IMG/VR virus record: IMGVR_UViG_3300044825_003153
Coordinates: 6,928 to 70,927 of that record
Origin: a virus
Strand: one strand, 5' to 3'
DNA: 64,000 nucleotides
Positions within the stretch are counted from its first letter, which is position 1. Each line of letters opens with the position of its first letter. Position numbers and translations under genes: made by a program. The notes beneath the pieces were generated by a model. That model was not told the origin of the DNA, did not search any database, and saw nothing but the letters and a program-made list of their open reading frames with translations. This document shows, one piece after another, positions 5,823-43,495 of the stretch.

Positions 5823-6271
5823 AGTACGCGGCCGACACCGACGTCCCGGTTCACCGCTCGCGCACCGAGATCCAGGAGCTGATCCTGCGGTTCGGCGTGA
5901 CCAAGTTCGGCACGATGATGGAGGCCGGCTGCGAGCAGTTCGCCTTCGAGACCAAGGGGCGCCGCTACCGCTTCCGGGTGATCGACCCGCCCAATGATCA
6001 CCCCTACGTCACGCGCACGCCCACCGGCAAGCCGCGGCCGACCTACAACCAGGCCGAGGCCTGGGAGAAGCTGCGCCGCGTCCTGTGGCGCACGCTGGTC
6101 CTGTCGATCAAGGCCCGGCTCGCCGAGGTCGAGCTCGGCATGACGTCCTTCGAGGACGCCTTCCTCGCGGAGACCATCCTGCCCAGCGGCCAGACGGTCG
6201 CCGAGGCGACCAAGGAGACGATCGCGCTCGCCTACCAGGGCCGCGACGTCCCTCTGCTGCCGCCGGCCTGA
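5813..6271 (+). CDS. Conserved phage hypothetical protein
   Basis: YAADTDVPVHRSRTEIQ...WRTLVLSIKARL...FEDAFLAETILPSGQTV, coupled to its neighbours. Confidence 0.7.
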   Translation: MQLKYAADTDVPVHRSRTEIQELILRFGVTKFGTMMEAGCEQFAFETKGRRYRFRVIDPPNDHPYVTRTPTGKPRPTYNQAEAWEKLRRVLWRTLVLSIKARLAEVELGMTSFEDAFLAETILPSGQTVAEATKETIALAYQGRDVPLLPPA

Positions 6272-6297
6272 GCGGCACCACACCAAGGAGACCACCC

Positions 6298-6462
6298 TTG
6301 TCCGCCAACATCTTCGCCAAGATCGGCGTCGGCGCGAGCGTCCTGTTCGGGCTGGCGCTGGTCGGGAAGCTCGCCTGGGGTCTCGGGCTTCTCGCTTGCT
6401 ACGGCCTGTGGAAAGGCCGCGGCCCCATCAAGGCTGTCCTGAAGCAACAGGGAATCATCTGA
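6298..6462 (+). CDS. Small membrane protein
   Basis: TTG start after AAGGAG. Hydrophobic IGVGASVLFGLALVGKLAWGLGLLACYGLW. TGATG overlap with terB. Confidence 0.6.
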   Translation: MSANIFAKIGVGASVLFGLALVGKLAWGLGLLACYGLWKGRGPIKAVLKQQGII

Positions 6463-6902
6463 TGTTCGCAGCACTGAGAAAGCGTCTCACCGACGCGCTG
6501 GACGACAACCTCGGCAGGTACACCGCCGACAAGGACCTGCTCGAGGGCGCCATGGCCGCGTGCGCCATGATGGCCCACGGCGACGGCACGCTCGAGGAGC
6601 AGGAGCGGAAGAAGACCGCCGACTTCGTCCGCCGGCACCCGTCGATGCGCCACTTCGACGGGAGCGAGGCCGGCAGGCTGTTCCTGCAGTTCTGCTCGGA
6701 GTTCGATTTCGACCACGGCATGGGTGTGAGCGCCTGCCTCAAGCAGATCGGGGAGGTGCGCGGGGACGAGAAGCGCACCTTGGTGATGCAGCTCGCCCTC
6801 GCGATCGGCAAGTCGGACGGCGAGTTCGAGCCCGGGGAGAAGCTCGCCGCCCAGAAGATCTGCGACCAGCTCGGCCTCAGCCGGTCCGAGTTCGACCTCT
6901 AA
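6462..6902 (+). CDS. terB: TerB-family (tellurite-resistance-like) protein
   Basis: AMAACAMMAHGDGTLEEQE...LALAIGKSDGEFEPGEK...ICDQLGL, the duplicated A-D-G-x-x-x-x-x-E motifs of TerB. Confidence 0.8.
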   Translation: MFAALRKRLTDALDDNLGRYTADKDLLEGAMAACAMMAHGDGTLEEQERKKTADFVRRHPSMRHFDGSEAGRLFLQFCSEFDFDHGMGVSACLKQIGEVRGDEKRTLVMQLALAIGKSDGEFEPGEKLAAQKICDQLGLSRSEFDL

Positions 6903-6960
6903 GTCGGCGCGCGGGCGGCTCCGGCCGCCCGCCTGCCCCTCCCAGCAACCGGAGACGACC

Positions 6961-7542
6961 ATGTTCCTCCTGTACAAGGCCGCGACCACCGGGCTCCCCG
7001 TGTGGAAGGCGGCCGACGACGACGCCAGCCAGCCCCACATCGTCGAGCTGGTCGCCATGCTGTGCAACAGCACCGGCGACCGCGTCGAGACGCTGTGCCT
7101 GATCGTACGACCCGACGGCTGGGAGATCCCCGCCCAGTCGACGGCGATCCACGGGATCACCGAGGTCGAGGCCAAAGCCTCGCCGATCGACGAACAGACC
7201 GCGCTCGGCCGGTTCCTCGGGATGATGGTGAAGGCGCACACGCGGGTCGGCTGGAACGAGCCGTTCGACAGCCGCATCATCCGGATCGCGCTCGCGCGCT
7301 ACCTGCCGGAGACGGTCGAGGGCTGGGGCCGGCAAACCGCGATCTGCGCCATGCGCCAGACCCTGGACTACCTCGCCGAGACCGACCCGGGAACGTTCCA
7401 CGGCCGCACGCTGAAGCTGCAGGCGGCCTGGGATCACCTGTACCCGTCCGAGCCGCAGGACGTGACCGAGAGCACCCTCGATACCGTCGAGGCCTGCCGG
7501 CGCCTGTTCTTCGCGACAAAGCTCCGGGGAGGGGAGCGGTGA
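6961..7542 (+). CDS. DnaQ/DEDDh-fold exonuclease-like protein with degenerate catalytic motifs
   Basis: TTGLP...QPHIVEL...IHGIT...WNEPFDSRIIRIAL fits the DnaQ fold, but ExoI reads YKAATTG instead of xDxETTG. Confidence 0.75.
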   Translation: MFLLYKAATTGLPVWKAADDDASQPHIVELVAMLCNSTGDRVETLCLIVRPDGWEIPAQSTAIHGITEVEAKASPIDEQTALGRFLGMMVKAHTRVGWNEPFDSRIIRIALARYLPETVEGWGRQTAICAMRQTLDYLAETDPGTFHGRTLKLQAAWDHLYPSEPQDVTESTLDTVEACRRLFFATKLRGGER

Positions 7543-7757
7543 CCCGCTGGATCTACGCCGACGAGACCAAGCCGATCCCGCGGCCCGTCTTCGCCGAGTT
7601 CACCTGCGACGGCGACCACGGCCTGTTCGACCCGTCCAAGCTGACCGTCGAGCTGTTCGTCGCCGGCCGTGACAGCTGGACCCAGGCCACGGCGCACGGG
7701 TGGAGCGTCACCCCCGAGCTGTGCCTGTGCCCGGAGTGCAAGGGCAAGCCGTCATGA
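7539..7757 (+). CDS. Small Cys-containing hypothetical protein
   Basis: GTG start overlapping the upstream stop. CDG...CLCPEC possible Zn ligands. Confidence 0.6.
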   Translation: MTRWIYADETKPIPRPVFAEFTCDGDHGLFDPSKLTVELFVAGRDSWTQATAHGWSVTPELCLCPECKGKPS

Positions 7758-8200
7758 ACCGCGGCATCCTGTTCAGCGCGCCGATGGTGCGCGCGATCCT
7801 CGCCGGCACGAAGACCGAGACGCGCCGGCTCGCTACCTCGCCGCTCGGCAAGCTGACCCTGCCGGCCGAGCTGTGGGTCCGGGAGACGTGGTACCCCACC
7901 GGGCCGGCGCCCGGGGATACCGCCTTCCGGGCGACCAGCGACCCCGAGGCCTGGGAGCCGCCCGACGGGTGGAAGCCAAGCCTCTTCATGCCGGAGTTCC
8001 GCTCAAGGATCCGGCTGAAGGTCACCAGCAACTTCGTCGAGAACCTCCGGGCGATCGAGGACGAGCAGGCCCGGCGAGAAGGCGTCGCCGACCGCGAGGC
8101 CTACCGCGAGCTGTGGGACACGCTCCACCAGAAGCCCGGCACCCGCTGGGCGGACGACCCGATCGTCACCGTCCTGCAGTTCGAGCGCATCCAACCCTGA
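7754..8200 (+). CDS. ASCH/PUA-like phage protein
   Basis: ILFSAPMVRAILAGTKTETRR...LWVRETW...WKPSLFMP, a conserved phage family. Confidence 0.75.
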   Translation: MNRGILFSAPMVRAILAGTKTETRRLATSPLGKLTLPAELWVRETWYPTGPAPGDTAFRATSDPEAWEPPDGWKPSLFMPEFRSRIRLKVTSNFVENLRAIEDEQARREGVADREAYRELWDTLHQKPGTRWADDPIVTVLQFERIQP

Positions 8201-8214
8201 ACCAAGGAGCCATC

Positions 8215-8970
8215 ATGCTGAAGCACCTCCTGGCGGCAGCGCTGCTGCTCGCCGCGGTCCCGGCCAAGGCCGCGACCATCGACGTCCTCGTGACGTTCAC
8301 GCCCGCGGCGCAGACCAAGATGGTGGCCCAGGCCGGATCGGTCACCACCTACGTCGACCGGATGCTGGAGAACGCCAACCGCGCGCTGCTCTACACCGGC
8401 AGCGGGCACCAGCTGCGCGTTGCGACCAGCACCACCGGCGCCGCCGGGCGCAAGCTCTTCTCGGGCTACCTGGAGACGTCGCTCTACGGCGACTTCACCG
8501 TCTTCGTTCAGCCGGGCGACGGGTATCTCGACCAGGTGCACAACTGGCGCAACCAGTTCCGCGGCGACGTGGCGGTGCTGATCGGGGACTATGGGCCCGG
8601 CGAGTTCAACACTGGTATCGCCGAGCGCCAGCCCGTGCAGAACGAAGGCGACGCCTTTCTCGGCTGCGACGTCGACCGCTGCAACCAGGGCGGGGAATGG
8701 GTGTTCGCGCACGAGCTCGGCCACCTCGCCGGCTGCGGCCACGAAAGCCAGACGGCGATCGACACGACGGCCTATGAGATCCCCGGCACGAACATCATCG
8801 ACCTGATGTTCACCTACGGCTACCCAAACAAGACCCGGCTATTGTTCTATGGGACGAACCGGGTGGCGCCGAACTTCTACGGGATGCAGAATGTCCGGAT
8901 CGGCGACGCCAATCACGATTGCGGCGGATCGTGGATCTTCTTCGGCAACGTCATGTCAAACTACCGCTAA
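8215..8970 (+). CDS. Secreted metzincin (reprolysin/M12B-like) zinc metalloprotease
   Basis: Signal peptide MLKHLLAAALLLAAVPAKA, zinc motif HELGHLAGCGH, Met-turn DLMFTY. Confidence 0.8.
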   Translation: MLKHLLAAALLLAAVPAKAATIDVLVTFTPAAQTKMVAQAGSVTTYVDRMLENANRALLYTGSGHQLRVATSTTGAAGRKLFSGYLETSLYGDFTVFVQPGDGYLDQVHNWRNQFRGDVAVLIGDYGPGEFNTGIAERQPVQNEGDAFLGCDVDRCNQGGEWVFAHELGHLAGCGHESQTAIDTTAYEIPGTNIIDLMFTYGYPNKTRLLFYGTNRVAPNFYGMQNVRIGDANHDCGGSWIFFGNVMSNYR

Positions 8971-41002: not shown

Positions 41003-41275
41003 GGTCGCACTCCGGTTGATAGGCCGGGGCGAGCCTTACGGAGGGTTGCGCGCGGGGTCTGCCGAAAGTCTCGACGGGGATGCCGGATGGGGTATTGACG
41101 CGGCTGGAAAGCGGCAGCGGCCGGCGAGCCCCTCAGGCACCCGCCGACCGCCCCTCACACCCGATCGCCCTCTCGGCTTGGGTATGGTCGCTGCGGTCCG
41201 CCCCGGGGACCGGGCCGGGCCTCCGCCAGGGATGTCCGGCCCGCCCTCCCCCGGCGCAGGGAACCGCGAAACTCG

Positions 41276-41366
41276 CCGGTCAGGACCTGTGCGTTACCTG
41301 ACCGGGATGCTCCGGTGAGCCGGCGTCCGCCCATGTCGGGTTGAACAGGGTGGAACCCACCGGAGC
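41276..41366. other. Structured non-coding segment in the capsid-operon leader
   Basis: CCGGTCAGG/CCTGACCGG and GCTCCGGTG/CACCGGAGC stems, with a nested GGGTT/AACCC stem. Confidence 0.4.
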
Positions 41367-41403
41367 GGTGATTGCATAGCAGCAGGTGCGGGGTGGCGGA
41401 TGG

Positions 41404-41437
41404 AAAAGAAAGAGGCCCGGCGGCAGGGCCGGGCCTC
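41404..41437 (-). terminator. Rho-independent terminator
   Basis: GAGGCCCGGC/GCCGGGCCTC stem followed by TTTCTTTT on the minus strand. Confidence 0.75.
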
Positions 41438-41537
41438 ACAGTCGGGGCAGTAAGCCTCAAGTCGCAAGTCGGTGTCATGGGGGCGGGGAGCCCCGGGACA
41501 CACAGCGGGGGTACCACGCCGCGCGAGGTGGCGGGTC

Positions 41538-41567
41538 AAAAAGAAAGGCCGCGGGGATACCGCGGCC
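41538..41567 (-). terminator. Rho-independent terminator
   Basis: GGCCGCGG/CCGCGGCC stem followed by TTTCTTTTT on the minus strand. Confidence 0.75.
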
Positions 41568-41588
41568 AGAGTGAACTCCATCGCTTGG

Positions 41589-41798
41589 TCACAGCGGCTC
41601 GTAGCACGGCAGCTTGGTCAGCGGGAAGTCGCGGTCGGCCACCCATGCCTTGCGCTCGCGGTCGTACCAACAGACCGGCACGCGGGTACCGCCCTTGAAG
41701 AGGAGCGCGCGACGCTCGCCGGCGGGCAGGGTCAGATGGCCCAGGACCTTCCCGTAGCGGCTGCTCAGCACCGGCGTGGTCTCCAGGGCGACGATCAT
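41589..41798 (-). CDS. Hypothetical protein
   Basis: ATGA-coupled to the MuF gene. Confidence 0.55.
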   Translation of the reverse strand: MIVALETTPVLSSRYGKVLGHLTLPAGERRALLFKGGTRVPVCWYDRERKAWVADRDFPLTKLPCYEPL

Positions 41799-43495
41799 GG
41801 CAGGCGCCGCCTCAGGGCCGCCAGGACCGCCCGCTCCTGTCGCGCGAAGCCCTCGCGCAGGGCCGCGGCCAGGATCTCCTCGTGATGCCGCAGCCGTTGT
41901 TCGACCGCCTTCCAGGCTGTGTCGCGTGCGGCCTTGTCGGCGAGCTCGGCCGCGCTCTTCTCGTCCGGCAGCGGGATCGAGAGGCAGCGGCAGTTTATGT
42001 CGAGCTTGGGCTTGCCGAAGTCCCCCGGGTACATGGCCTCATTGCCCTCCCAGACGAAGGGCTTGTCGGCCTCGACGATCTGCCCGTCCAGCGCCGAATG
42101 AGCGTCGCGCACGAAGGCGTCGCGCGAGCTGAGCCACATCTTGCGCTCGACGTTGCCGCGGGCGATCGCCGCCTGCGCGCCGTAGCCGGCGGCGCGCGTG
42201 GTCTCGGTGCGGGCGATGATCTCGGCGCGCACGCCCTTCGCACGAGCGAAGACGCCGCGGATCGCCTTGACCAGCTTGGGGAAGGTCGGGCCGTCGCTGG
42301 TGACCTTCGCCATGGCGTCGGCCAGCTCGCGCCGCGTGGTCGTGCCGACCAGCTCCTTGATCCGCTCGGCGCCGAACTTCTTGAGGAAGTCCATCACCGC
42401 CGGCCGTTTGACCGTGAAGGACGCCTCGACGTCGATCACCCGATAGGTCCGGCGGCCGAAGTCCTGGATGATGTCCTCGATCGATTCCGCGGCCGCGGCG
42501 GCCAGATCCTCGTCGGGGACTTCGTCGCCGATGCCCTCATAGTTGCCGGGGTCGACCTTCAGCTCGAGCTCCTCGCCCCAGGTCGACTTCGTCGTCTTGG
42601 CCGGGCCCAGGATCACCTCGGGGCCGACCGTGATCGGGAAGTCGGGCAGCCGCTCGGGCACCGGACCGTCGTGGTCGTAGCTCACCGTGATGTGCGGCAG
42701 GTAGGCCGGGAAGCCGTGGACCGCGCCGGCCTCGGTGGCGCGCATGTTGCAGGCGCGGGCAAGCTGGCTCTCGACCACCAGCGCCAGGGCCCGGCCGTCG
42801 GCGCCCAGGCGCGCCCAGCGATAGGTTGCGGGATCCAGGGTCTCGACATCGTCGATCGGCTCACGGTCGCCCTCGCCCACCGTGCCGCCGTAGACCGTGG
42901 TCAGGTGGTAGGCCGGATGCAGCGTGGGCTTGGCCGGGATCACCAGGGGCATGATGCCGACCTCGCGGCACCAGTCGGCGAGCCGCTCGGGCTCCTGCAC
43001 TTCCAGCCAGGCGAAGACGGGCGTCGCCAGCCCGTCGTCCTCAGTAGGAAAAGGGGGCTCGGACTTGCCGTCCGCGCCCTCCTCGTCGCCTGCGCCAGTC
43101 TCCGTGGTCGCCCCCGTCGTGGCCGCGGCGAAGTCCTCGTCGCTGACGTCGAAGAACGGGACGTCGAAGCCCAGCTCGTAGAGCTGGTTCTGGTACTCGT
43201 CGACGTAGGTATCGACGACCTTCGTCCAGGCCTCGTCGAGCCCCTCGGCGGCATCGAGGTAGGTCGCCCATGCGCTCGGCGGCTGACTGAGCTCCGGGGG
43301 CTCGAGCGGGCTGGCGTTGCCCTTGATCGGGCTCAGCAGCTCGCCGGTATCGAGATAGTACCCGTCGGGCGCTTCCGGCTCCAATCCGAGCTGCGCCACG
43401 GCCTCCTCGCGCGTCAGCTGCCCGTCGGCCATGAACAGCTGCGTCACCGTGATGATCGGGTGCGGGCCACCGTCGAACACGGGGATGATGTTCAC
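41795..43495 (-). CDS. Fusion of an acidic N-domain, an Acb1-like 2H phosphoesterase and a MuF/SPP1 gp7 head morphogenesis domain
   Basis: HLTTVY and PHITVSY HxT motifs. MuF motifs RAEIIARTETTRAA...KMWLSSRD..VRDAHSALDG...PGD...DINCRC. Confidence 0.85.
   Translation of the reverse strand: MNIIPVFDGGPHPIITVTQLFMADGQLTREEAVAQLGLEPEAPDGYYLDTGELLSPIKGNASPLEPPELSQPPSAWATYLDAAEGLDEAWTKVVDTYVDEYQNQLYELGFDVPFFDVSDEDFAAATTGATTETGAGDEEGADGKSEPPFPTEDDGLATPVFAWLEVQEPERLADWCREVGIMPLVIPAKPTLHPAYHLTTVYGGTVGEGDREPIDDVETLDPATYRWARLGADGRALALVVESQLARACNMRATEAGAVHGFPAYLPHITVSYDHDGPVPERLPDFPITVGPEVILGPAKTTKSTWGEELELKVDPGNYEGIGDEVPDEDLAAAAAESIEDIIQDFGRRTYRVIDVEASFTVKRPAVMDFLKKFGAERIKELVGTTTRRELADAMAKVTSDGPTFPKLVKAIRGVFARAKGVRAEIIARTETTRAAGYGAQAAIARGNVERKMWLSSRDAFVRDAHSALDGQIVEADKPFVWEGNEAMYPGDFGKPKLDINCRCLSIPLPDEKSAAELADKAARDTAWKAVEQRLRHHEEILAAALREGFARQERAVLAALRRRLP

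Follow-up and report, generated by a model that had tools for sequence, protein, structure and literature searches.

An Acb1-family phosphodiesterase domain within a MuF head protein as a candidate virion-delivered enzyme against cyclic-nucleotide immune signals

The gene that follows the portal gene on the minus strand of a 64,000-nucleotide stretch of viral DNA (positions 6,928 to 70,927 of IMG/VR record IMGVR_UViG_3300044825_003153; this whole stretch is called the window here) encodes a minor head protein, hereafter Acb1-MuF, with a predicted enzyme domain in its middle. By profile searches and by comparison of a structural model, this middle domain belongs to the Acb1 family of 2H phosphodiesterases and not to the LigT type. 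Our preferred reading, to which we give a probability of about 0.55, is that the protein would be packaged in the head and ejected as an enzyme that destroys cyclic-nucleotide immune signals. Comparison with close relatives further revealed that the window carries a portal-Acb1-MuF fusion which an insertion has split into two genes.

The Acb1-family domain and its MuF partner

The open reading frame (ORF) at 41795-43495 encodes 566 amino acids (aa) in three parts: an acidic N-terminal domain, the Acb1-family 2H domain and a MuF/gp7 domain. An earlier note made from the DNA sequence had proposed this layout, and it is borne out by the ORF and by Pfam and PHROG matches. The gene and its parts are located as follows.

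41795..43495, minus strand: whole Acb1-MuF gene (P0001), from the ORF list, its translation and Pfam and PHROG domain matches
42596..43021, minus strand: Acb1-family 2H phosphodiesterase domain, residues ~159-300, from PF23474, phrog_755, an AlphaFold2 (AF2) model and a profile
42899..42907, minus strand: first catalytic HxT, H197-L-T199, corresponding to H44/T46 of solved Acb1 (PMC9117128)
42686..42694, minus strand: second catalytic HxT, H268-I-T270, invariant in alignments and aligned with PHITLSY of 7T26
41924..42505, minus strand: MuF/SPP1-gp7 head-morphogenesis domain, residues ~331-524, from phrog_2468, PF04233 and TIGR01641
43112..43495, minus strand: acidic orphan N-terminal domain, residues 1-128, from composition and from a BLASTP match to the homologue P0004 that starts only at residue 129

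Sequence searches and fold comparison agree on the assignment of the middle domain. Among all PDB chains, Acb1 of Erwinia phage FBB1 (7T26) is the closest in sequence, and phrog_755 covers residues 163-277 (E 6e-12). PF23474 (Acb1), whose domain is single-copy in the assembly, has a cut-off of 27 bits, which the whole protein exceeds with 33.7 bits and the excised domain with 36.9 bits (E 3.7e-9). Moreover, a profile (A4) built from 11 head-protein-embedded domains only, which therefore borrowed no signal from canonical Acb1, matched 7T26 over its full length at 8.8e-24 and LigT at 0.018. The AF2 model of the 2H domain, built on an alignment of 51 sequences, reached a predicted local distance difference test score (pLDDT) of 86 and a predicted template modelling score of 0.82. 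When Foldseek was run with this model, the Acb1 structures 7T26 and 7T27 ranked first and second (E 1.5e-6). VIA-align superimposed the model on 7T26 with Z 15.7 and a root-mean-square deviation of 2.1 Å over 131 of 137 residues; the next best structure was the Acb1-type phosphodiesterase of Burkholderia phage BCSR5 (Z 12.9), and LigT and Usb1 gave Z 9-10 at 3.7 Å (9.8 for LigT). The Pfam families LigT_PEase and 2_5_RNA_ligase2 had no match on the Acb1-MuF protein. Since Pfam, the A4 profile and the fold comparison all favour Acb1, an assignment to the LigT type, which the earlier note had named as the alternative, was rejected. Its proposal of an Acb1-like 2H enzyme is upheld by the same data, 7T26 being the closest structure.

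The catalytic tetrad of Acb1 consists of H44, T46, H113 and T115 (PMC9117128). It is intact in the window domain as H197/T199 and H268/T270, and the protein has no H-x-[TS] tripeptides besides HLT197-199 and HIT268-270, which lie 71 residues apart. Across 51 aligned homologues both His residues are invariant and both Thr residues nearly so. The earlier note had recognised the paired motifs correctly but had placed them one base off: HLTTVY lies at 42890-42907 and PHITVSY at 42677-42697. Acb1 cleaves cyclic di- and trinucleotides, 3'3'-cyclic GMP-AMP among them, 3' of adenosine by metal-independent acid-base catalysis; its base-stacking aromatics are Y12, W74, F107 and W147, its E141 contacts adenine N6, and it has a short C-terminal lid (PMC9117128). 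By-eye alignment puts F161, F262 and W306 at three of the four stacking positions, with W306 situated in a part of the lid modelled at pLDDT <50. In the same kind of alignment W227 falls one column off the fourth position (W74/F66), where the nearest relatives have Leu.

The C-terminal part of the protein is matched by the phrog_2468 'head morphogenesis' family (1e-34, residues 331-524) and by PF04233 (47 bits, cut-off 29.6, residues 393-505), while TIGR01641 phageSPP1_gp7 scores 39.3 bits, marginally below its cut-off of 39.65. Its gene directly follows the portal gene in the head module, as expected of a minor head protein of the SPP1 gp7 type. In SPP1, the portal targets gp7 to the interior of the procapsid, and delivery of MuF-fused cargo at infection has been proposed (PMC6316719). 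The N-terminal domain (residues 1-128) contains 24 Asp/Glu and only 3 Lys/Arg residues, has an isoelectric point of 4.05 and is clearly coding, with an in-frame GC content at third codon positions (GC3) of 0.93. Searches with this domain yielded no Pfam match and no homologue, and its Atlas scores (<=0.81) are at chance level.

The split fusion, its relatives and the neighbouring genes

Among 5.8 billion proteins, the closest homologues are single polypeptides of ~890 aa that combine Phage_portal, Acb1 and Phage_Mu_F. One of these, P0004, matches both window genes in BLASTP: residues 22-490 of the upstream portal gene product (P0002) pair with P0004 residues 20-463 at 66% identity, and residues 129-566 of the Acb1-MuF protein pair with P0004 residues 455-887 at 52% identity. 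Together, the two window genes thus equal one ancestral portal-Acb1-MuF fusion, which is interrupted by ~525 aa (~1.6 kb) made up of P0002 residues 491-887 and Acb1-MuF residues 1-128. From one end to the other, the insertion holds a P/A/K-rich linker, a lower-GC domain with an HExxH motif, the stop/start junction and the acidic orphan domain. As judged from these alignments, what was one fusion gene is, through the insertion, a pair of genes with coupled translation in the window. The features of the upstream gene and of the junction are these.

44686..46155, minus strand: portal domain of the upstream gene P0002, residues 1-490, from PF04860 (8e-62) and TIGR01537 portal_HK97
43495..44685, minus strand: C-terminal extension of the portal gene, residues 491-887, not alignable to P0004
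43503..43507, minus strand: GGAGG ribosome-binding site, 7 nt upstream of GTG, read directly from the sequence

Translational coupling is indicated by the GTG start of the Acb1-MuF gene (43495), which overlaps the TGA stop of the portal gene as GTGA (43492-43495). A frameshift that re-fuses the two products was considered and is unlikely: upstream, the -1 frame stays open over no more than 33 codons, no X_XXY_YYZ slippery heptamer is present, and the GGAGG stands 7 nt before the GTG. Given the short open frame, the missing heptamer and the strong ribosome-binding site, termination-reinitiation coupling is preferred over frameshifting.

The extension of the portal gene carries HEIAH at 43873-43887 and NPMETFAE at 43693-43716. 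We take these motifs to resemble the HExxH...ExFAE arrangement of MtfA and of lethal-factor-type zincins. The domain around them, especially 43495-44205, has a GC content of 0.60 and a GC3 of 0.78, compared with ~0.69 and 0.93 elsewhere, and no homologues were detected, viral contigs included; the lower GC content together with the lack of detectable homologues suggests a recent acquisition. No curated Pfam model matched significantly (M90 at E 0.21). The Atlas provided leads to ATLF/Peptidase_M90 zincin clusters and to one with Phage_Mu_F in 85% of its members, and an AF2 model of P0002 residues 650-887 made without an alignment was unusable (pLDDT 37). The motifs of the portal-protease neighbour described in the earlier note are thus present, but its identity as a protease is weak; likewise, the description of both genes as a two-gene effector-carrying head module is fair as anatomy, while the protease assignment stays a lead.

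Two loci with relatives (L001 and L002) are syntenic with the window and show the order small terminase (terS), large terminase (terL), unsplit fusion, S78 protease and capsid. Moreover, a 64,344-bp viral contig (L004, IMGVR_UViG_3300044825_002279) encodes at 6210-8780 a portal-MuF orthologue from which the Acb1 domain is precisely absent: identity is 64% on both flanks, and ~166 aa are replaced by ~15 aa. In length, this contig nearly equals the one from which the window comes. Among close relatives, the portal-MuF junction therefore holds nothing, Acb1 or, in the window, Acb1 plus the 525-aa insertion. This presence/absence series marks the Acb1 domain as swappable accessory cargo, and on sequence evidence the junction behaves as an accessory cargo slot. 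We also entertain, more tentatively and with somewhat less than even confidence, the broader idea that the junction is a hot-swappable slot for Acb1, zincin-like and acidic domains whose contents would be placed in the capsid beforehand and then ejected.

An exhaustive HMMER search with the 2H domain returned 67 representatives. Among those longer than 250 aa, 32 of 33 carry PF23474, and their partners include HK97-type portal (5), MuF (5), XkdF-type prohead protease (5) and Alt-like ADP-ribosyltransferase (ART; 3) as well as Mu-type portal+MuF, NUDIX, topoisomerase IB, DUF6267 and LPD38. In a maximum-likelihood tree of the domain, all portal/MuF-linked forms fall into one clade (support 97/92), with the protease- and ART-linked forms as its sister. 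The joint clade (95/90) contains fusions in 25 of its 27 rows, most stand-alone forms lying outside, and the window domain groups with P0004 and P0007 at 99/98. The Acb1 domain had no tblastn match in 50,697 GenBank phage records, where the whole protein was matched only through MuF, and a scan of genome contigs for relatives found none. A relative from a cultured phage is the portal protein gp3 of cyanophage Pam3 (PDB 8HDS chain A, from virion cryo-electron microscopy), which has a C-terminal Acb1-like domain at residues ~466-613 (profile matches at E 3.4e-24, and at 1.4e-14 with the A4 profile). The paper on the Pam3 structure describes only the five canonical portal parts, and the Acb1-like domain goes unmentioned (PMC9942802).

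Acb1-fusion proteins in the wider family include P0021, P0059, P0055, P0020, P0026/P0035/P0039 and P0028/P0050. The forms of fusion comprise Alt-like ART, ART with topoisomerase IB, NUDIX (in a 1484-aa protein), XkdF-type protease and DUF6267, the last with or without a cytidylyltransferase-like domain. In the 3252-aa protein P0058, the Acb1 domain occupies residues 2033-2149.

The order of genes in the window is terS, terL, portal, Acb1-MuF gene, a 69-aa gene, a 590-bp gap, S78 prohead protease and major capsid. The gene directly downstream of Acb1-MuF is listed here.

41589..41798, minus strand: 69-aa gene, overlapping the stop of the MuF gene (ATGA), conserved, function not assigned

Its product has 32% identity (E 3e-8) to that of a 74-aa gene that in L001 overlaps the triple fusion at its end. 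The ~590-bp gap between this gene and the prohead protease (41003-41588) lies inside the head operon and contains no convincing ORF, and an Rfam scan of it gave sub-threshold matches only (isrO 26.8 bits compared with 42; suhB/mmgR 22 bits). In L001 and L002 the same position holds variable small genes. A 537-aa gene at 46155-47768 (minus strand), which occupies the large-terminase position between terS and portal, has no Pfam match at E <=0.01, and no Pfam match is on record for the genes at this position in L001 and L002 either.

Proposed role and alternative explanations

In the mechanism that we propose, the MuF/gp7 domain would dock the minor head protein to the portal inside the procapsid, and the metal-independent 2H phosphodiesterase of the Acb1 family would ride on it as cargo. 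A small number of copies would go into the capsid along with the DNA and come out along with it. Inside the cell, the enzyme would cleave cyclic di- and trinucleotide immune signals, that is, those of CBASS, a signalling system against phages that is based on cyclic oligonucleotides, and possibly the cyclic triadenylate of type III CRISPR, either ahead of phage gene expression or without depending on it. Late in infection, freshly synthesised protein may do likewise. The step of capsid loading is probable, and it is supported indirectly by the orthologues, which are covalent portal-Acb1-MuF fusions, by related Acb1 domains that are fused to other internal head proteins, and by the portal-directed entry of gp7 into the SPP1 procapsid.

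Several points weigh against this reading. The match to PF23474 aligns only model positions 68-133 of 144, and the restriction to the second half of the model can be attributed to a 6-residue insertion before the first HxT. The position equivalent to E141 of Acb1 is occupied by Leu, three residues past a conserved Glu in a GPE motif; P0004, P0007 and P0008 have Gly at this position, and Glu stands there in P0009, P0011 and the majority of the other family members. Moreover, the lid is 4-8 residues longer than that of Acb1, continues into the linker and is modelled at pLDDT <50. Lacking the adenine-contacting Glu and having an altered lid, the domain may differ in its substrate range, which need not equal that of T4 or FBB1 Acb1. 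Enzyme activity and packaging throughout the fused clade are predictions from sequences and models. The gene is part of a late operon, so an effect of injection would be inseparable from one of late de novo synthesis. The position of the enzyme, N-terminal to MuF, may also leave ejection of the cargo doubtful, as the described MuF toxins have their cargo on the C-terminal side. Finally, no cGAS/DncV-like nucleotidyltransferase (SMODS) was found in the 80%-complete metagenome-assembled genome that holds the contig, nearly all of which is taken up by the window; SMODS was present in none of 8 genomes of the same genus and in 2 of 24 of the same family, counts which are uninformative about the true host range.

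The main rival to head packaging and ejection, which we regard as a real though clearly less probable option, is an enzyme that works only late and in the cytoplasm, where fusion to a head protein would guarantee its co-expression with the trigger of CBASS. Such a role suits a gene that belongs to a late operon of structural genes and whose translation is coupled to that of the portal gene, and T4 Acb1 is itself a free cytoplasmic enzyme (PMC9117128). Links between CBASS and phage proteins are also reported: mutated virion assembly proteins are said to let phages escape CBASS (10.1101/2023.05.21.541620), and phage proteases to activate it (10.64898/2026.03.04.709575). However, co-expression needs membership in the operon only and not a covalent fusion, whereas Acb1 domains have been fused independently to five capsid-internal proteins (HK97-type portal, Mu-type portal, MuF, XkdF protease and Alt-like ART), and one supported clade consists almost entirely of fused forms. 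The late cytoplasmic and the injected mode are not mutually exclusive, and both may operate.

Unlike these two modes, an RNA-directed activity of the 2H domain would leave cyclic-nucleotide signals aside: the domain could repair the 2',3'-cyclic phosphate ends that anticodon or toxin RNases of the host produce, or serve after injection as a Usb1-like RNase on host RNA, the option that Iyer et al. 2017 offered first (PMC5512222). Members of the 2H superfamily perform such reactions (PMC5512222; PMC9503650), LigT and Usb1 structures do match our model at Z 9-10, and the Glu that specifies adenine in Acb1 is not conserved here. We nevertheless consider an RNA substrate unlikely, as Acb1 is far closer than LigT both in the profile comparison (8.8e-24 vs 0.018) and in fold (Z 15.7 vs 9.8), the protein is matched by neither of the two LigT-type Pfam families, and RNA ligase (PF09414) was found nowhere in the assembly, phage contig included. 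Least probable by a wide measure is that the domain is a catalytically irrelevant spacer or a structural module of the head protein. The portal-MuF protein of L004 is without the domain, which is hence not needed for head assembly and could be dispensable filling; yet the HxT motifs and the positions around them are invariant across a clade with ~35-50% identity, and a catalytic tetrad would not be retained in a spacer that can be dispensed with. A head-packaged, ejected phosphodiesterase directed at cyclic-nucleotide signals is still the reading that we prefer.

Known systems and biological meaning

Fusions of 2H domains to MuF or portal proteins were described from genomes by Iyer et al. in 2017 (PMC5512222) and 2022 (PMC9503650, section 3.4.5), and the later paper states that they suggest head packaging and injection against SMODS, cyclic-mononucleotide and CRISPR signalling (PMC9503650). 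The novelty of the locus was thus overstated in the earlier note, since both the fusions and the hypothesis of an injected anti-signalling enzyme are already found in these two papers. The window shares with those effectors a 2H domain and MuF near or fused with portal, the context of virion genes, the lack of an RNA-ligase partner and the proposed role, and differs in that the usual single polypeptide is split by the ~525-aa insertion with its HExxH and acidic domains. The two papers make genome-based predictions without experiments and do not assign the domains to the Acb1 family by name. Conversely, neither of the Acb1 papers (Hobbs 2022, PMC9117128; Doherty 2025 preprint) mentions fusions or virions. 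A search of a literature library for an experimental test of the delivery of head-fused 2H/Acb1 found none; there is a report of an ejection protein from virions that acts by another mechanism, as an inhibitor of a CBASS effector (10.1101/2025.07.23.666291).

With Acb1 itself (T4 gene 57B; FBB1 7T26/7T27; PMC9117128) the window domain has in common the compact 2H fold, the HxT/HxT tetrad and a score that reaches the Pfam threshold. In contrast to the free protein of ~150 aa, it is an internal domain of a head protein with ~21% identity, and it has a 6-residue insertion before the first HxT, a longer lid that is not C-terminal and no conserved adenine-contacting Glu. The triple fusions P0004, P0007, P0008, P0009 and P0011, all from metagenomes, share orthologous head genes (52-66% identity for P0004), synteny and the Acb1 clade with the window, but tie the enzyme covalently to the portal, whereas the window encodes it in a separate polypeptide with an extra N-terminal domain. 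In Pam3 gp3, a member of the same Acb1 clade, the enzyme is also tied to the portal, but the MuF part is missing. MuF polymorphic toxins and SPP1 gp7 (PMC6316719) resemble the window protein in using MuF as a portal-binding address tag for cargo of the capsid interior; these toxins carry the cargo at the C-terminus of MuF, while the putative counter-defence enzyme of the window stands N-terminal to it.

Overall, the window gene is a real, ordinary addition to a known class that was predicted from genomes, and what distinguishes it is the split by an insertion and the extra domains. Taken alone, the window is one more example of a class that is common in metagenomes, and the prediction that such fusions are injected dates from 2017. 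Should the broader view of the junction as a slot for ejected cargo be true, this would be the first anti-signalling effector of the enzyme type shown to be active ahead of all phage gene expression, and through the split of the gene the portal-tethered domain and the free Acb1-MuF protein would differ in copy number. Defences such as CBASS, Thoeris, Pycsar and type III CRISPR are able to fire when the phage has yet to make its inhibitors, and an enzyme carried in the capsid would solve this timing problem of early-firing signalling defences. The locus provides a clean natural series, the same head protein with and without Acb1 cargo, and Pam3, a cultured and structurally solved phage with the same portal domain, is a ready experimental model for capsid-carried Acb1.

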